From: a virus
Taxonomy: Duplodnaviria; Heunggongvirae; Uroviricota; Caudoviricetes
DNA: 41,556 bases
Virus record (IMG/VR): IMGVR_UViG_2802429245_000005
Strand: one strand, 5' to 3'
Shown: piece by piece, positions 6,546 through 40,111 of the stretch
Position numbering within the stretch: the first letter of the stretch is position 1
Layout of the letters: each line of letters opens with the position of its first letter
Notes under the pieces: model-generated
Databases searched by the model: none
Told to the model about the DNA's origin: nothing
What the model saw: the letters and a program-made list of their open reading frames with translations, nothing else
Position numbers and translations under genes: made by a program

Positions 6546-6621
6546 TTTGCAAAACGTGCTGGATAGCAAACAAATTATTTGCTACTGTATAAATATACAG
6601 TTATTGCATGGAGAAGATAAG

Positions 6622-7650: not shown

Positions 7651-7665
7651 TTACCTTAAAGGTAA
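7651..7665. promoter_or_regulatory. Palindromic operator-like site TTACCTTAAAGGTAA
   Basis: Exact motif 21 nt upstream of the start of minus-strand gene 6902-7630. Confidence 0.6.
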
Positions 7666-7850: not shown

Positions 7851-7870
7851 ACCGCGCAAGCGGTTTTTTT
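7851..7870 (+). terminator. Intrinsic terminator-like hairpin plus T7 tract in the antirepressor leader
   Basis: ACCGC-GCAA-GCGGT followed by TTTTTTT. Confidence 0.5.
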
Positions 7871-8027
7871 ATGCGTATAGCACGGCCACATTCGTATTAT
7901 GGTGGGCTGTGTGGGGGCACCGAAAGGTGCGCCGGGTCCTTTTAGCCGGTTACGCCAACCCTGCACAGTTCACCACCAACCGATTGGCGTCGGTAGTGGT
8001 GATTAACCAGACTAAAAGGTAACCACT

Positions 8028-8723
8028 ATGACAGCTACAAAAAGCACGTCCATTTTTTCTTTCGAATCCCAAGCCGATATACGGGTAATCGTCATTAATG
8101 GTGAGCCATGGTTTATCGCTTCAGATGTTTGTCGGGCTATAGGCATAGCAAACCATCGAGATGCTGTTCGAAAACTTGATGATGATGAGAAGGGCGTCGC
8201 TTCAACCGACACCCCTGGCGGTGAGCAAGAATCGATCATTATCTCCGAGTCAGGCCTCTACACACTGATCCTCCGCTGCCGCGATGCGGTGACACCAGGC
8301 ACTATCCCCTACCGCTTTCGTAAATGGGTTACAGGTGAGGTTCTTCCTCAGATCCGCCGCACCGGAAGTTACATTAAAAACTCGCTCCCGCAGGAAGAAC
8401 GCATAAAGATGGTTGCCGACCAGGTTGCCAACGCCACGGCGTCAGCAGTAATGCAGGCGATGAAGATAGAGAACAAAACCTACAGCGCCCCGCTGAAGCC
8501 AGGATACCGCAGTCTGATTCACTCGCCGTCTGGTGTTCTCGGCCTGACGGAGAACTCACTGCTGATGAATCTGCTGAACCAGTTACAGGAAGACGGGCAT
8601 GATGTATCGGGCGCGGCGGCGGAGCTGACCACCATGTTCTGCTACATCGTCGGTGTGAGTAAATGCCTGCGTGATATCCAGACGCATGCGGAGTACATCA
8701 ACGACAAGGCTGGGTTCTTCTGA
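8028..8723 (+). CDS. Antirepressor, BRO-N (Ant-type) N-terminal domain plus C-terminal domain
   Basis: N-terminus FSFESQADIRVIVINGEPWFIASDVCRAIGIANHRDAVRKLDDDEKG matches the Bro-N fold signature. RBS AAGG before ATG at 8028. Confidence 0.8.
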   Translation: MTATKSTSIFSFESQADIRVIVINGEPWFIASDVCRAIGIANHRDAVRKLDDDEKGVASTDTPGGEQESIIISESGLYTLILRCRDAVTPGTIPYRFRKWVTGEVLPQIRRTGSYIKNSLPQEERIKMVADQVANATASAVMQAMKIENKTYSAPLKPGYRSLIHSPSGVLGLTENSLLMNLLNQLQEDGHDVSGAAAELTTMFCYIVGVSKCLRDIQTHAEYINDKAGFF

Positions 8724-26485: not shown

Positions 26486-26500
26486 TTACCTTTCAGGTAA
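26486..26500. promoter_or_regulatory. Palindromic operator-like site TTACCTTTCAGGTAA
   Basis: Exact motif next to TTGACA (26464-26469), upstream of the tRNA region. Confidence 0.6.
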
Positions 26501-26822: not shown

Positions 26823-26899
26823 GTGGCATTAGCTCAGCTGGACAGAGCAACCGCCTTCTAAGCGGTTGGTCGCAGGTTCGAATCCTGCATGCCACGCCA
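26823..26899 (+). tRNA. tRNA-Arg, anticodon UCU (reads AGA), phage-encoded
   Basis: Cloverleaf read directly: acceptor GTGGCAT/ATGCCAC, D-arm GCTC-AGCTGGACA-GAGC, anticodon stem ACCGC/GCGGT with loop CTTCTAA, T-arm GCAGG-TTCGAAT-CCTGC, discriminator G and encoded CCA. Confidence 0.85.
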
Positions 26900-26942
26900 G
26901 AATCACGCCTAAGGACCGTGATGCCAGAAGTTCCATGGGCTT

Positions 26943-26985
26943 GGCGGTGATGGTTTCCCTTGAAGGACTATCACCGCCCTTTTTA
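26943..26985 (+). terminator. Rho-independent terminator downstream of tRNA-Arg
   Basis: 9-bp perfect stem GGCGGTGAT / ATCACCGCC followed by CTTTTT. Confidence 0.6.
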
Positions 26986-27058
26986 CAGCAGGACGCCATT
27001 GCGATGACTTCATGCTGTAAACCAGTACAGCCACGGAAGGCATAACTCATTGCTTCCA

Positions 27059-27087
27059 GTTCGCCCGGTTCGCCGGGCATTTTTTTG
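27059..27087 (+). terminator. Rho-independent terminator (second, downstream of the tRNA)
   Basis: GCCCGG-TTCG-CCGGGC followed by ATTTTTTT. Confidence 0.7.
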
Positions 27088-27102
27088 CCTGGTGACTGAA
27101 CG

Positions 27103-27117
27103 TTACCTTGAAGGTAA
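27103..27117. promoter_or_regulatory. Palindromic operator-like site TTACCTTGAAGGTAA
   Basis: Exact motif 33 nt upstream of ATG 27150, downstream of the tRNA terminators. Confidence 0.6.
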
Positions 27118-27149
27118 GATAACAAAAACATTTAACATCTGGTTTAGAC

Positions 27150-27759: not shown

Positions 27760-29229
27760 TTATGAAAACGGATCGTACTCAGTAATAGCTTTCCCCTGCT
27801 GCTGCCGTGGGTCATTAGTTTTCTTGGCTACCGGGAAGGCGAACGTTAGCAGCAGCGCATCACCTTTACCCGGCGAACGCCCAAGTCGCTCTTTGATATC
27901 TTCCTTCGGTTCGATAACGATTTTACCGTCCACGCGAACTTTGTACTCTGCCGTCGACAGGTCGTCCGCTGTTTCCTGGTCATCCAGCATCCCGCCCAGC
28001 CTCAGCCATGTCTTGCATGAGTTGAACATCTCCCCACGCTTGTTGAGCATCTGCGGGTCAGTAGACGCGCCACCGAACGGAACAAGTTGCCATGTACGAC
28101 CCCAGCCGTCACCGATTGACTTCAGACCAGTTCCGTAACCGAAGTCGATGAACACTGCGTCAGCCTGGTACTGGTCTTCAAAGTCAGCGATACGCTTCGC
28201 CATTATCAGATCGTCAGTGGTCTTGTTGCCAGTCCACAGCACCTTACTGTGCAGCCCCTGCCGCAGGTATATCACAGCGTCATCAACGCCGGAGTATGCA
28301 GGGTCAACGCCGATTATCACCGGAGCATGTGCCACCTGCGCAGCAGTTACCACCCGTTTCATTGCCTCGTCAGTAAGACCGGTAGGGATAAACTGCAATT
28401 CAGATGCATCAGGAAATATGCCGCGCACACGGATTTTAACGAAGTCGCTGTCTTCCCCGTAGTCATCAACCCATTTCTGTAATTGCTGCTTGTTAGTACC
28501 TTCCACCGTCCGGCTGTCAATCTGTGCAGTTTTCCAGCGGTGTTTATATTTGCGGAAACATTCGCGGAAACGCCCGGTGTTACGTGTCGGGTTTCCGAAC
28601 GCCACCCAGATAATCTCAGTGTCTTCGTCCGTAAGCGCACCCTCAGCAACTTCCCACACCAGATCCGCAATGTTCGACGCTTCATCGAATACCACGATGA
28701 TGCGTTTGCGCTCATTGTGTAATCCGGCGAATGCCTCAGTGTTGTGCTCAGACCAGGGGATTGCGTCAGCTCGCCACCGCTTGTCGTGCCCAGGGTCATT
28801 GCTGTACATCGCGGTAGCGGTACAGGTAAACCAATCTTTCGTGATAGCAAGGTTCGACCACTTGATAATTTCCGGCCAGGTCTTCGTTCGTAGCTGGTTG
28901 TCGGTGTTGGCGGTCACCACGACCTTACAATCCTCGCAAGTGGACATGCCCCAGTTGATCAGCATTGAGATGAATGCTGATTTACCAATACCGTGACCAG
29001 AAGCACGTGCCAGCATAAGCGGCTGATAGCGCGTCTCTGGATTCTGCAGATGATCACGTATCTCTCGGAACGCATCGGCCTGCCACTGACGTGGACCGGT
29101 GGCATGTGCCAGTTCAGTCCCCTCTTCCCCCCACGGGAACGCATAGAGGGCATAGCCAAGTGGATCGTGAGTGAACCCTGCAATATCCTCGATTAACTGC
29201 TCTTCAGGAGATAACGCTGTATCTGTCAC
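27760..29229 (-). CDS. Terminase large subunit
   Basis: 489 aa. GTG start at 29227-29229 overlaps the small-subunit stop, with RBS AGGATGG. Walker-A-like GHGIGKS and a C-terminal nuclease-type acidic region. Confidence 0.85.
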   Translation of the reverse strand: MTDTALSPEEQLIEDIAGFTHDPLGYALYAFPWGEEGTELAHATGPRQWQADAFREIRDHLQNPETRYQPLMLARASGHGIGKSAFISMLINWGMSTCEDCKVVVTANTDNQLRTKTWPEIIKWSNLAITKDWFTCTATAMYSNDPGHDKRWRADAIPWSEHNTEAFAGLHNERKRIIVVFDEASNIADLVWEVAEGALTDEDTEIIWVAFGNPTRNTGRFRECFRKYKHRWKTAQIDSRTVEGTNKQQLQKWVDDYGEDSDFVKIRVRGIFPDASELQFIPTGLTDEAMKRVVTAAQVAHAPVIIGVDPAYSGVDDAVIYLRQGLHSKVLWTGNKTTDDLIMAKRIADFEDQYQADAVFIDFGYGTGLKSIGDGWGRTWQLVPFGGASTDPQMLNKRGEMFNSCKTWLRLGGMLDDQETADDLSTAEYKVRVDGKIVIEPKEDIKERLGRSPGKGDALLLTFAFPVAKKTNDPRQQQGKAITEYDPFS

Positions 29230-29822
29230 TGATTACCATCCTGACGTTCTTTGAGTCGCTTCCTGGCTGCTGCTATGCGATCAGCAATTGTCACATTCAC
29301 ATTAACATCCAGACGTTCTTTGAACGCGTTGACATCAACATGCTTACCAATCAGCTCAAGGTTCTTCACCTTGTCAGGCCATTTAATTTTTTTGAGGATT
29401 GTCTCTATCGAATCCTCGTTCATGTTCATGATGGTCGATGACAGATCAAAGCCACTAAGCGTAGTACGCCAGATTTTCGGCCACTCACGGATTGGTTTAA
29501 GGCTCCCATCGTCGTTGAGGATGTCGATCACGTCCATCTGGTCGATCTCCACCAGGCGCATGAGAACGTAATCAGCACTGACGCGCATTCGTTTGTTGCG
29601 CTCCTCCATCAACTCGGCAATCCGTTTCTGAATGCGTTCATCGCGCATCATGACACTGGCTTTAACTGCCGCTGTATTTGGGGAGAATCCTGCGTTAATC
29701 GCAGCCTGAGTCTGGTTTTCAGGCGTTTTGATGTATGACTGGCAATAAGCCTCCTGCATTGCTGTGAGCGGCTTAAATTGCGTTGATTTGCGTTTATAGG
29801 TTTTAGGTTCAGCAGGCATCAT
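29226..29822 (-). CDS. Terminase small subunit
   Basis: ATG ATG at 29817-29822 with GGTGG upstream. 4-nt stop/start overlap with the large subunit. Confidence 0.65.
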   Translation of the reverse strand: MMPAEPKTYKRKSTQFKPLTAMQEAYCQSYIKTPENQTQAAINAGFSPNTAAVKASVMMRDERIQKRIAELMEERNKRMRVSADYVLMRLVEIDQMDVIDILNDDGSLKPIREWPKIWRTTLSGFDLSSTIMNMNEDSIETILKKIKWPDKVKNLELIGKHVDVNAFKERLDVNVNVTIADRIAAARKRLKERQDGNQ

Positions 29823-29839
29823 AACCACCGTGGTAATTG

Positions 29840-29854
29840 TTACCGTTGTGGTAA
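29840..29854. promoter_or_regulatory. Palindromic operator-like site TTACCGTTGTGGTAA at the late-operon start
   Basis: Exact motif between the minus-strand terminator (29866-29891) and the terminase small subunit start (29822). Nested GGTAA/TTACC half-sites around it (29832-29861). Confidence 0.55.
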
Positions 29855-29865
29855 TAGTACCATGC

Positions 29866-29891
29866 AAAATAAAGCCGCCATAGTTGGCGGC
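29866..29891 (-). terminator. Rho-independent terminator between the early region and the terminase gene
   Basis: 7-bp perfect stem GCCGCCA / TGGCGGC followed on the minus strand by UUUAUUUU. Confidence 0.6.
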
Positions 29892-29940
29892 AGTATTCAA
29901 AACCCATCAAATTCATCATGCATAATCTACTCGTGACATG

Positions 29941-30279
29941 TCACACTATTAATTTCGTTTCATGCCAGCCTTTAGTCACCCAGCATTGCGAGTCACCATT
30001 ACACGGGCATGAATTAACTGGAACTCTCTCGCCGCACTTACCGCAACGTTTTCTGCTGATCGATTTTATACGCCCGCGCACGCGTGCATCATCCTGGCGG
30101 ATCAGTAACGCTATATACTCACCAAATTCGTAAGGCGCACGCCCGGGGCGACGCGTGGCACAGTTACGCTCCAGCATTTCAATTTCCTGAGCATCAAGCA
30201 CAATTTCCAGCTTACGCACACCAGATGCAGCTTGTCTGGCTCTCTGAGCGGCTTTGCGCTCTGCTGCTGATTTAGCCAT
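29941..30279 (-). CDS. Small DNA-binding-like protein with C-terminal Cys-rich zinc ribbon; candidate late-gene regulator
   Basis: Basic/Ala-rich N-terminus (MAKSAAERKAAQRARQAASGVRKLEIVLDAQEIEMLE) and C-terminal CGKCG...CPCNGDSQC. Last early gene before the terminator and terminase. Confidence 0.5.
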   Translation of the reverse strand: MAKSAAERKAAQRARQAASGVRKLEIVLDAQEIEMLERNCATRRPGRAPYEFGEYIALLIRQDDARVRGRIKSISRKRCGKCGERVPVNSCPCNGDSQCWVTKGWHETKLIV

Positions 30280-35357: not shown

Positions 35358-35372
35358 TTACCTTTGAGGTAC
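35358..35372. promoter_or_regulatory. Operator-like site TTACCTTTGAGGTAC (one mismatch)
   Basis: Between the terminator after the cro-like gene and the 70-aa zinc-binding-like gene. Confidence 0.4.
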
Positions 35373-35380
35373 GAATAGAT

Positions 35381-35406
35381 ATGAAAAGACCGCCGGATGG
35401 CGGTCT
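35381..35406 (-). terminator. Rho-independent terminator after the cro-like gene
   Basis: 8-bp perfect stem AGACCGCC / GGCGGTCT with a U-rich tail on the minus strand, 22 nt after the cro-like stop. Confidence 0.6.
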
Positions 35407-35694: not shown

Positions 35695-35709
35695 TCACCC
35701 ATAAGGTAA
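35695..35709. promoter_or_regulatory. Operator-like site TCACCCATAAGGTAA (one mismatch) in immunity region
   Basis: First of three sites between the divergent cro-like (start 35658) and repressor-like (start 35813) genes. Confidence 0.45.
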
Positions 35710-35812: not shown

Positions 35813-36397
35813 ATGAAAAGTATCCAGGACGTCCGCAGGCAAAATCTCAACGACTTGATCGACCGTGAATTCAATGGTGTTCAGACGCGGATGGCAGAAA
35901 AACTTGGAACTCAGGCAAATCTGGTAAACCGCTGGGCTCTTGGCAAGAAGGTTATCGGCGACCAGGTTGCGCGAAAAATTGAAGCTGCCGCCAATAAACC
36001 CCGTAACTGGCTTGATATCGATCGCTCGCTTTCTCAGGAAGGTTTTCAGCCTGTCGGCCCAAGCGACATTGGTCAGCTGGCGGCTCACAACCTGGAACGC
36101 TGGATGAGCGAAAGCCGCGACCTTTCAACACAGGGAAAACTTCACCGCGCATCCGGCGTCGCCCAGGTAACAATCAGCCGCCTGTTAAACAATGAGGTCA
36201 GCGTTTCCATTTCCACCCTGGAGAATGTTGCATCCGCATTCGGGCGTCACGGCTATGAATTACTGATTCACCCGCACGACCCTGCGACCATCAACTATGA
36301 CCGCTCGCGCTACGCATTGTTACCCGAAACCGAGAAAGCAAAGATCGAAAGTTACATTGAATTTGTCATCAACCAGAACGAAAAAAATAAACAATAA
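35813..36397 (+). CDS. Repressor-like protein with two XRE-type HTH domains (candidate lysogeny repressor)
   Basis: 194 aa with two HTH-like segments and no S24 peptidase domain. Monocistronic: strong terminator at 36418-36444. Operator motifs cluster between it and the cro-like gene. Confidence 0.7.
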   Translation: MKSIQDVRRQNLNDLIDREFNGVQTRMAEKLGTQANLVNRWALGKKVIGDQVARKIEAAANKPRNWLDIDRSLSQEGFQPVGPSDIGQLAAHNLERWMSESRDLSTQGKLHRASGVAQVTISRLLNNEVSVSISTLENVASAFGRHGYELLIHPHDPATINYDRSRYALLPETEKAKIESYIEFVINQNEKNKQ

Positions 36398-36454: not shown

Positions 36455-36469
36455 TTACCTTATGGGTAA
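36455..36469. promoter_or_regulatory. Palindromic operator-like site TTACCTTATGGGTAA
   Basis: Exact motif about 20 bp upstream of TTGACA (36489-36494), ahead of the recombination operon. Confidence 0.6.
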
Positions 36470-36488: not shown

Positions 36489-36516
36489 TTGACATCAAAC
36501 CAAATACGCATAATCA
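36489..36516 (+). promoter_or_regulatory. Sigma70-like promoter candidate for the recombination operon
   Basis: TTGACA at 36489-36494 and -10-like CATAAT (36509-36514) or TAATCA (36511-36516). Spacer length is non-optimal, so assignment is tentative. Confidence 0.4.
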
Positions 36517-36531
36517 TTACCCCAACGGTAA
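36517..36531. promoter_or_regulatory. Palindromic operator-like site TTACCCCAACGGTAA
   Basis: Exact motif immediately downstream of -10-like CATAAT/TAATCA (36509-36516); paired with the site at 36455. Confidence 0.6.
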
Positions 36532-39468: not shown

Positions 39469-40111
39469 GAAATACACACTAATCTATGCAGATCCACCCT
39501 GGGTATACCGGGACAAAGCCGCAGATGGTAATCGCGGTGCCGGTTTTAAATATCCGGTTATGAGTGTGCTGGACATCTGCCGCCTTCCTGTGTGGGATTT
39601 GGCCGATGAAAACTGTCTGTTGGCCATGTGGTGGGTGCCAACACAACCACTCGAAGCACTAAAAGTTGTTGAAGCCTGGGGATTCCGTCTGATGACCATG
39701 AAGGGATTCACGTGGATAAAATGTGGTAGTCGACAACCAGATAAACTGGTTATGGGTATGGGACACATGACTCGCGCCAATAGTGAAGATTGCCTGTTTG
39801 CGGTAAAGGGAAAACTACCTCCGCGCATTAATGCAGGTATCGTTCAGTCATTTACCGCACCGCGGCTTGAGCATTCAAGAAAACCAGATATTGTTCGTGA
39901 AAAACTTGTGCAATTGTTAGGCGATGTTTCTCGCATTGAACTGTTCGCCCGCCAGACGTCTCATGGCTTCGATGTTTGGGGTAATCAGTGCGAAGACCCG
40001 GCAGTGCAACTACACCCTGGATACGCGTTGGATATTGCCGGATTAACAAATGCATTCAGCAATGCTCCGCTGTCACCAACAGACAACCAGGGGCGGGAGC
40101 GTGCAGCATGA
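39461..40111 (+). CDS. MT-A70-family N6-adenine DNA methyltransferase
   Basis: Catalytic DPPW motif in MTKKYTLIYADPPWVY. About 216 aa. Start taken at ATG 39461; the track starts at GTG 39449. Confidence 0.75.
   Translation: MTKKYTLIYADPPWVYRDKAADGNRGAGFKYPVMSVLDICRLPVWDLADENCLLAMWWVPTQPLEALKVVEAWGFRLMTMKGFTWIKCGSRQPDKLVMGMGHMTRANSEDCLFAVKGKLPPRINAGIVQSFTAPRLEHSRKPDIVREKLVQLLGDVSRIELFARQTSHGFDVWGNQCEDPAVQLHPGYALDIAGLTNAFSNAPLSPTDNQGRERAA

Follow-up and report, generated by a model that had tools for sequence, protein, structure and literature searches.

What governs the passage from early to packaging genes in a prophage where the two groups follow one another on the same strand? The question is raised by the virus record IMGVR_UViG_2802429245_000005, a stretch of 41,556 nucleotides (nt; hereafter the window, meaning the whole stretch of DNA that was analysed), which, judged from its sequence, is a Uetakevirus prophage of the epsilon15/phiV10 type, the minus strand carrying its late genes. 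On that strand the last early gene, coding for a protein of 112 amino acids (aa; 30279-29941), is followed by a junction interval and then by the terminase genes terS and terL, and our comparisons support the view that this interval is both the early/packaging-gene boundary and a genuine control point. As to how it works, we hold with moderate confidence that a terminator is followed here by an extended -10 promoter lying under operators of the immunity repressor (Rep), and that the palindrome at the end of the early gene is a separate module, the site of the protein encoded upstream. The elements on which the argument rests are, in the order in which the minus strand is read:

29941-30279, minus strand: last early gene, 112 aa, stop codon TGA at 29943-29941; its product has a predicted basic N-terminal helix, ribbon-helix-helix core and C-terminal cysteine (Cys) cluster and belongs to the epsilon15 gp49 / phiV10 gp55 / N15 gp46 family (phrog_536)
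29933-29944, no strand: perfect 12-bp palindrome GTGACATGTCAC, containing the TGA stop of the 112-aa gene
29897-29923, minus strand: eight-codon remnant ATG CAT GAT GAA TTT GAT GGG TTT TGA, recognised by comparison with relatives
29866-29891, minus strand: predicted intrinsic terminator closing the early-right operon (terminator scan and fold)
29854-29862, minus strand: candidate extended -10 element TGgTACTAT, with TG at 29862-29861 and the hexamer at 29859-29854 (sequence inspection and conservation)
29840-29854, no strand: operator O1, TTACCGTTGTGGTAA, exact TTACC-N5-GGTAA (motif scan), orthologous to an epsilon15 site
29822-29836, no strand: operator O2, TAACCACCGTGGTAA, one mismatch (motif scan)
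29226-29819, minus strand: terS, small terminase, 197 aa, heading the packaging operon (Pfam Terminase_2, E = 1e-29)
29229-27760, minus strand: terL, directly after terS

Over the junction and its flanks the window is 98% identical to Escherichia phage vB_EcoP_PAS61 (PAS61); phiV10, TL-2011b and the O157 typing phages also matched this segment, and more distant matches to the junction came from epsilon15, SPN1S/SPC32H and the Enterobacter phage Tyrion, all members of the genus Uetakevirus.

Repressor operators and a candidate promoter ahead of terS

The original prediction, made from the letters of the window, described nested TTACC/GGTAA motifs just upstream of the terminase genes, with one exact operator motif and overlapping half-sites; every feature that it named stands where it was placed. 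The exact operator, O1, is real, while the supposed nested half-sites turned out to be a second full, weaker operator, O2, whose centre lies 18 bp from that of O1; in annotation, the nested motif should thus be read as two repressor operators. The 30-mer in which the motifs had been noticed, GGTAATTGTTACCGTTGTGGTAATAGTACC (29832-29861, plus strand), stands directly ahead of the terS start. We rejected GGTAA-N3-TTACC as a motif in its own right, as it occurs once in the window and at least once in 53 of 100 shuffles, which is chance level; within the 30-mer it is the mere junction of two neighbouring operators. TTACC-N5-GGTAA itself is present in 12 exact and 4 one-mismatch copies against 0.75 expected, GGTAA is counted 133 times in the window against 57 expected, and when the arms of 5+5+5 palindromes were counted without bias in six genomes (243 kb), TTACC came first by a wide margin (60, versus 6 for the runner-up).

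The nature of these sites is suggested by the epsilon15 RefSeq record (NC_004775.2), in which bases 12-27, just ahead of terS, are annotated as 'protein_bind: repressor (lysogeny)' and read TTACCAAAACGGTAAT. O1 is positionally orthologous to this site, which bears out the earlier proposal that late genes are controlled at this junction. The same record places further repressor sites ahead of gp3, of the tail fibre gene and of the resolvase gene, with counterparts in the window at 26486, 6531 and 33394/33456, and others in a PL-like region downstream of the repressor gene, with counterparts at 36455/36517. The cognate gene is also present:

35813-36397, plus strand: immunity repressor, 194 aa, with an HTH_3 domain (PDB 5D50 chain A, E = 4e-42, residues 1-190)

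By sequence homology this repressor is a homologue of SPC32H Rep (PDB 5D50), its gene is flanked by operators at 35695, 35743, 36455 and 36517, and from annotation and homology we presume that it binds the TTACC-N5-GGTAA sites. All three marks of such an operator were found for O1, namely the 15-bp palindrome, a cognate Rep gene in the same genome and positional orthology with the epsilon15 site. In ZX5, a near-identical E. coli phage, overexpression of the repressor blocks lytic growth and a Bro-type antirepressor promotes it (PMC9782041).

Several further observations concern the scattered operators. Pairs of operators spaced 62 bp centre to centre are strictly conserved in all six genomes, both in the PL-like region (36455/36517) and upstream of the DUF1064/resolvase gene (33394/33456), and they occur at the same places in loci L010-L013 and L149; this conserved spacing suggests looping by a tetrameric repressor. 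In the variable stretch between terL and the head operon there is a tRNA-Arg(tct) gene (26823-26899, plus strand), with a perfect TTGACA on the same strand at about 26464, just ahead of the operator at 26486-26500; a 100-aa open reading frame on the opposite strand (26829-27131) is probably spurious. A LexA-box consensus, CTGTATAAATATACAG (6585-6600), adjoins the operator before the tailspike gene, is conserved in five genomes and occupies the position at which SPC32H carries its ant gene. The window also contains a gene for a Bro-N type antirepressor (8028-8723), flanked by operators at 7651, 7744 and 8790.

The same motif is found in the relatives, with 8-11 exact copies each in epsilon15, Tyrion, BUCT554 and PAT1 and a paired site ahead of terS in all four; the one-mismatch partner of the terS site keeps its spacing in epsilon15, Tyrion and PAT1 and stands at 20 bp in BUCT554. 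In SPC32H the exact copies number 10 and include the site ahead of terS, whose partner exceeds one mismatch (TTGCTTCGGTGGTAA). Across 73 related junctions both arms of O1 are unchanged, and differences fall in its centre, in the spacer separating the operators and in O2's left arm; in Klebsiella phi13.3, O2 is degenerate. O2 is, from its sequence, probably a weaker auxiliary site. The half-site is identical in every Uetakevirus that was fetched.

Could the GGTAA/TTACC repeats, or the palindrome, instead be the packaging signal (pac) recognised by the small terminase encoded just downstream? The pac of SPP1-type phages takes in sequence both inside the small terminase gene and ahead of it, and several GenBank records of the genus begin in the junction interval. 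However, TTACC-N5-GGTAA carries a repressor annotation and is scattered over 12 intergenic locations, the immunity region among them; the records begin where they do by convention, just behind the stop of the preceding gene or behind the terminator, and the palindrome is found in phages with unrelated terminases as well. Because the motif is spread across the genome, we regard a packaging signal as very hard to credit. The start of the phiV10 record inside the palindrome was also rejected as a physical genome end, since the record simply begins after the stop codon of the last gene.

Next to O1 we find a candidate promoter for terS. The sequence TGgTACTAT has the make-up of an extended -10 element, that is, TG, one base and a hexamer near TATAAT (5 of 6 matches). 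The last base of the hexamer, TACTAT, is at the same time the initial T of O1, so that O1 spans from that base (-7) to about +8 of the predicted promoter. The 73 related junction segments (20 distinct sequences, each 77 nt from the hairpin to ATGCC) all retain TG and TA..AT; G, T or A is found at the free position of TGn and C or T at position 3 of the hexamer, one variant even bringing the latter closer to consensus as TATTAT. Given that TG, TA..AT and the O1 arms are invariant and the neutral positions variable, this is the pattern expected of a promoter plus operator. BUCT554 keeps TGaTAGTAT and both operators despite an unrelated upstream sequence. Moreover, the PL-like early promoter TTGACA-17-AATCAT (36489-36517) also ends on the first T of an operator (36517-36531), so the -10/operator register is identical in the two places. 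From this arrangement the transcript is predicted to start most likely near A29847, inside O1 and about 7 nt downstream of the hexamer, with a 28-nt leader; the ribosome-binding site GGTGG (29829-29825), which O2 overlaps while touching the first ATG, ends 5 nt ahead of the ATG at 29819. Since a conserved extended -10 abuts the operator in a PL-like geometry, we infer that packaging transcription most likely starts near 29847 under repressor control.

Several points weigh against this model. No -35 match was found at the candidate terS promoter, which would therefore depend on the TG motif, and the hexamer has a C at position 3; the promoter may thus be weak or require an activator. Part of the -10-like sequence is shared with the extended operator consensus (ATTACC), so that the final two bases of the hexamer can be explained by the operator. 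As for O2, its left arm is poorly conserved and it overlaps the ribosome-binding site, so that its apparent conservation may be partly translational.

We envisage the following course of events. Transcription of the early-right operon would end at the terminator (29891-29866), and terS-terL would be served by the promoter TGgTACTAT, lacking a -35 element and situated directly downstream. In the lysogen, Rep bound to O1, and possibly to O2, would block RNA polymerase at this promoter and would also stop any read-through that escapes the terminator. Upon induction, the antirepressor would inactivate Rep, and transcription would start near 29847. The palindrome would take no part in this, being most likely bound by the ribbon-helix-helix/Cys-rich product of the gene that terminates within it.

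Terminator, variable interval and start of terS

That a strong terminator with a 7-bp GC stem and U-tract lies at 29866-29891 had been read from the sequence, and the terminator scan agreed. The stem (29891-29885 / 29880-29874, GCCGCCA/ACTA/TGGCGGC) comprises 7 bp, 6 of them GC pairs, around the 4-nt loop ACTA and is directly followed by the U-tract TTTATTTT (29873-29866), which is the build of an intrinsic terminator, a GC-rich hairpin with a U-tract directly behind it; the RNA fold reaches -13.8 kcal/mol (z = -4.95). The stems are unchanged across the 73 related junctions, and the epsilon15 record has a rho-independent terminator annotated at the corresponding place, at its very end. The hairpin is thus predicted to be a strong, conserved intrinsic terminator. 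In one respect the original prediction needs qualifying, as in BUCT554 the hairpin is absent from the junction and the promoter-like element and the operators are kept. Elsewhere in the window, a hairpin after the cro-like gene is likewise directly followed by an operator-like sequence, GTACCTCAAAGGTAA, with one mismatch (35358-35372 and 35387-35406, minus strand).

The eight codons at 29923-29897, which lie between palindrome and hairpin, represent the fused start and end of a 70-aa accessory gene, which is intact at this position in the prophage of E. coli 20Y000092 and in many IMG/VR loci (a 340-nt version); some relatives have one-base deletions inside the remnant. BUCT554 and Klebsiella phi13.3 harbour a different accessory gene at the same junction position, with a promoter of its own, TTGACT-17-TATACT, overlapped by a LexA box of the form CTGT-N8-ACAG (7860-8260 in the BUCT554 locus L012 and 380-700 in the Klebsiella phi13.3 locus L007). 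The BUCT554 product begins MGFPSPAKDY, a start that may recall UmuD-type proteins. Comparison of the loci thus marks the palindrome-to-hairpin interval as a hot spot of insertion and deletion. Because accessory genes are inserted there in relatives, palindrome and late promoter do not stand at a fixed distance.

The terminator brings in the main rival explanation of the junction, in which the early-right promoter also serves the late genes, polymerase is carried past the hairpin by some phage factor (perhaps the 112-aa protein, bound at the palindrome), and the operators act solely as roadblocks in the lysogen. A strong terminator between co-directional early and late genes would suit such read-through, as would the missing -35 of the terS candidate promoter and the occurrence of the palindrome upstream of or beside terminators at three operon ends in relatives. 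The 112-aa protein, however, has no similarity to Q or other known antiterminators and is of ribbon-helix-helix fold; phage ZF40 has both a homologue and a separate Q-like gene, and the homologue is not next to the late genes. BUCT554, moreover, lacks the hairpin yet keeps TGnTAnTAT and the operators, and the distance between palindrome and hairpin varies, with whole genes intervening. We consider antitermination unlikely, if still worth keeping in mind. The original prediction had left open whether late transcription initiates at the junction or antiterminates through the hairpin, and of the two initiation is the better supported, by the conserved extended -10 on the operator and by its PL-like register; on the side of antitermination, no antiterminator was identified, the upstream protein being of the ribbon-helix-helix and not of the Q type.

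A short RNA ending at the hairpin would be yet another product of this interval if the left half of the palindrome, GTGACA, acted as the -35 of a promoter GTGACA-18-CATGAT, a match of 9/12 in the promoter scan. In the epsilon15 group GTGACA-17-TAAATT stands at the same place, but the RNA would there start inside the hairpin; the -10 candidate is, furthermore, absent where a gene is inserted, and the palindrome copies at other operon ends have no matching -10. Among the Rfam models only sub-threshold matches (rseX and ncr1175) were obtained. The one to rseX, an Hfq-binding small RNA, is full-length and weak (29867-29952, minus strand; 27.8 bits versus a gathering score of 50, E = 0.12-0.17), and as the score is far under threshold and comes mostly from the terminator, it is probably due to chance. 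A small RNA is hence quite improbable in our judgement, and initiation at the extended -10 remains the reading that we prefer.

The comparison of relatives also settles the start of terS, which by this evidence is the ATG at 29819 (197 aa), as the original prediction had assumed, and not the TTG at 29900. The annotations of PAS61, phiV10 and prophages processed with PGAP begin terS at the TTG, giving a protein of 224 aa that runs through the terminator and both operators, whereas epsilon15, Tyrion and SPC32H annotate the ATG equivalent to 29819. We rejected the TTG on these comparative grounds, to which are added that the first ATG (29822) is ATT in relatives L049 and L083 and that in BUCT554 and Klebsiella phi13.3 stop codons close the frame upstream of terS. 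Annotations of terS should thus begin at 29819, unlike many database records, in which the protein runs on across the terminator.

The palindrome and the gene family upstream

As had been noted from the sequence, the early gene ends in a perfect palindrome at 29933-29944, and its TGA stop (29943-29941) lies inside GTGACATGTCAC. By count alone such palindromes are not unusual in the window (9 perfect 12-bp palindromes versus 11.5 +/- 3.1 simulated). The 12-mer is nevertheless kept in epsilon15, Tyrion, PAT1, SPC32H and Klebsiella phi13.3 while its flanks diverge, and GTGAC is the top arm of 5+2+5 palindromes in the six genomes (16 versus 6 for the next). In epsilon15, Tyrion, BUCT554, PAT1 and SPC32H it occurs three times per genome, occasionally with one base changed: one copy marks the stop of the gp49-type gene, a second comes right after terL, on the far side of a GC hairpin, and a third closes the structural operon, directly before a canonical terminator. 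Among the loci of relatives, copies stand at 2142, 19517 and 39612 in L010, at 2145, 19634 and 38629 in L149 and at 2262 in L002. Behind each copy there comes a variable stretch that reaches as far as a repressor operator. The copy after terL is also present in most phiV10-type E. coli loci; the window holds only the one at the gp49-type stop and has lost the two others.

The palindrome follows the gene family beyond the genus. In the myovirus ZF40, whose gp22 also belongs to phrog_536 (67% protein identity), the gene ends in TAA and is followed by TTGTGACATGTCACA, and in loci L085-L097 the stop stands 5 nt upstream of an intact palindrome, with the ribosome-binding site of the next gene directly behind it. 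Of the N15-like loci, whose protein is about 35% identical to that of the window, 49 of 49 have GTGAC-TG-GTCAC overlapping the stop, with variable coding bases just upstream of it, and GTGAC-AG-GTCAC lies over the stop in Vibrio phage 10N.237. Vibrio phages of the K233 type have two copies each, which in K233 itself lie some 230 nt behind the gene and some 30 nt ahead of terS. By our own calculation, the chance expectation of GTGAC-NN-GTCAC is below 0.01 per 6-kb locus. A Yersinia P2-like homologue, which lacks the N-terminal third, has no palindrome within 6.3 kb, and this speaks for the proposed link between protein and site; two Aeromonas homologues, which count against it, have none within 7 kb.

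What does the palindrome do? An RNA hairpin was rejected, as the fold (-2.9 kcal/mol, z = -0.18) is no better than that of shuffles. Given this instability, and given that the inner C/G of the arms is conserved though unable to pair around a 2-nt loop, the palindrome is better read as a protein site at the level of DNA. A fixed-distance activator site for the terS promoter was likewise rejected, since the distance to the -10 differs by 18 bp between the window and epsilon15 (our own count) and genes intervene elsewhere. Because whole genes are inserted between palindrome and promoter in relatives, the palindrome is not part of the late switch, and the original idea of it as a fixed component of that switch is not sustained. 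Nor does synteny lend support to the upstream protein as a late regulator, since for its gene in ZF40, N15, Yersinia P2-like and Vibrio phages no consistent place next to late genes was seen. On comparative evidence, GTGACATGTCAC is probably the candidate DNA site of the 112-aa ribbon-helix-helix/Cys-rich protein. Sequence searches with this protein gave no match in PDB, Pfam or NCBIfam, and a Foldseek search against viral models returned a fragment of the same family as the sole match. A role of the palindrome in insulating operon ends is a guess.

The arms of the palindrome recall a host site. The matS consensus bound by MatP is GTGAC[AG]N[TC]GTCAC, and a survey of 500 prophages from Escherichia and Salmonella did not turn up a single true matS, which is below the expected number (PMC3603311). 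The phage arms, GTGAC/GTCAC, are identical to the matS arms, and each Uetakevirus copy is followed by a variable accessory-gene region; it might thus be supposed that the palindrome is a target of host MatP, or a boundary of module exchange, instead of the site of a phage protein. Yet every phage copy found is a 12-bp GTGAC-NN-GTCAC with a centre of 2 bp, one shorter than in the 13-bp matS site, and the motif follows the protein family across hosts, Vibrio included. In N15-like phages, furthermore, the following gene is conserved, so there is no variable boundary, and the lack of true matS in the surveyed prophages speaks in the same direction. Taken together, we find this explanation improbable.

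The 112-aa protein has no detectable homology to MatP by sequence (hhalign probability 0.1%, and no MatP in the PDB profile search), and it has a Cys cluster where MatP has a helical bundle and coiled coil, although it may recognise the matS half-site in a different register. As there is no detectable sequence homology with MatP and no true matS in the surveyed prophages, the resemblance to matS is a lead and not a membership. We speculate, tentatively and with more doubt than conviction, that phrog_536 constitutes an undescribed class of phage DNA binders, combining a ribbon-helix-helix with a Cys cluster and recognising the matS-like GTGAC-NN-GTCAC, which would act as an operon-end insulator or antiterminator, or else as the phage's own equivalent of MatP, organising its DNA or protecting it against SMC-type complexes of the host.

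Relation to known phage systems

The layout of terminator and repressor site is already annotated in epsilon15; the assignment of a promoter and the link between palindrome and protein are additions that we did not find described in the literature searched. In epsilon15 the order is the same, with the gp49 stop inside GTGACATGTCAC, a GCCGCC hairpin (terminator 39646-39672), TGtTACTAT, TTACCAAAACGGTAA, a second near-site and the terS ATG. The two differ in that the junction interval is about 78% identical, in that the accessory-gene remnant between palindrome and hairpin is a feature of the window, and in that the epsilon15 record annotates neither the promoter, nor the second site (O2), nor the palindrome. 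With the Rep/Ant system of SPC32H the window shares a homologous repressor (E = 4e-42), an identical operator motif and its placement, including before terS, and a LexA box upstream of a divergent gene adjoining the tailspike gene; unlike SPC32H, with its LexA-controlled antirepressor, the window additionally has the Bro-N type antirepressor gene at 8028-8723.

Mycobacteriophage L5, with its stoperators, and phage P1, with its C1 operators, are cases of one immunity repressor with many scattered sites, including sites in or ahead of late operons. The L5 stoperators are asymmetric and orientation-dependent and act on elongating polymerase, and the P1 late genes also need the Lpa activator. The window resembles both in its dispersed operators and in the direct silencing of late genes that they imply, and differs in that its sites are symmetric 15-mers positioned at promoters. 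The arrangement of pR', tR' and Q in lambda is similar in that promoter-like and terminator sequences come straight after the final early gene and precede the late ones. In the window, however, the terminator precedes the best promoter candidate, on which a repressor operator lies, and no Q-like protein was identified, the upstream protein having no Pfam or NCBIfam match.

No description of GTGACATGTCAC or of its link to the upstream gene family was found in the literature searched. The palindrome, which is short, has the arms of matS and accompanies a small predicted DNA-binding protein through otherwise unrelated enterobacterial and vibrio phages, may thus be new, and if the 112-aa protein binds it, this would offer a handle on a widespread phage gene that databases label only as 'transcriptional regulator'. 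For the genus itself, the same operator guards other late units (head and tailspike) as well as early promoters, and we therefore infer that late genes are repressed directly and not through a lambda-type cascade. Hence, the lysogenic repressor of Uetakevirus appears to silence the packaging, head and tailspike units each at an operator of its own, in a flatter scheme than the cascade of lambda.

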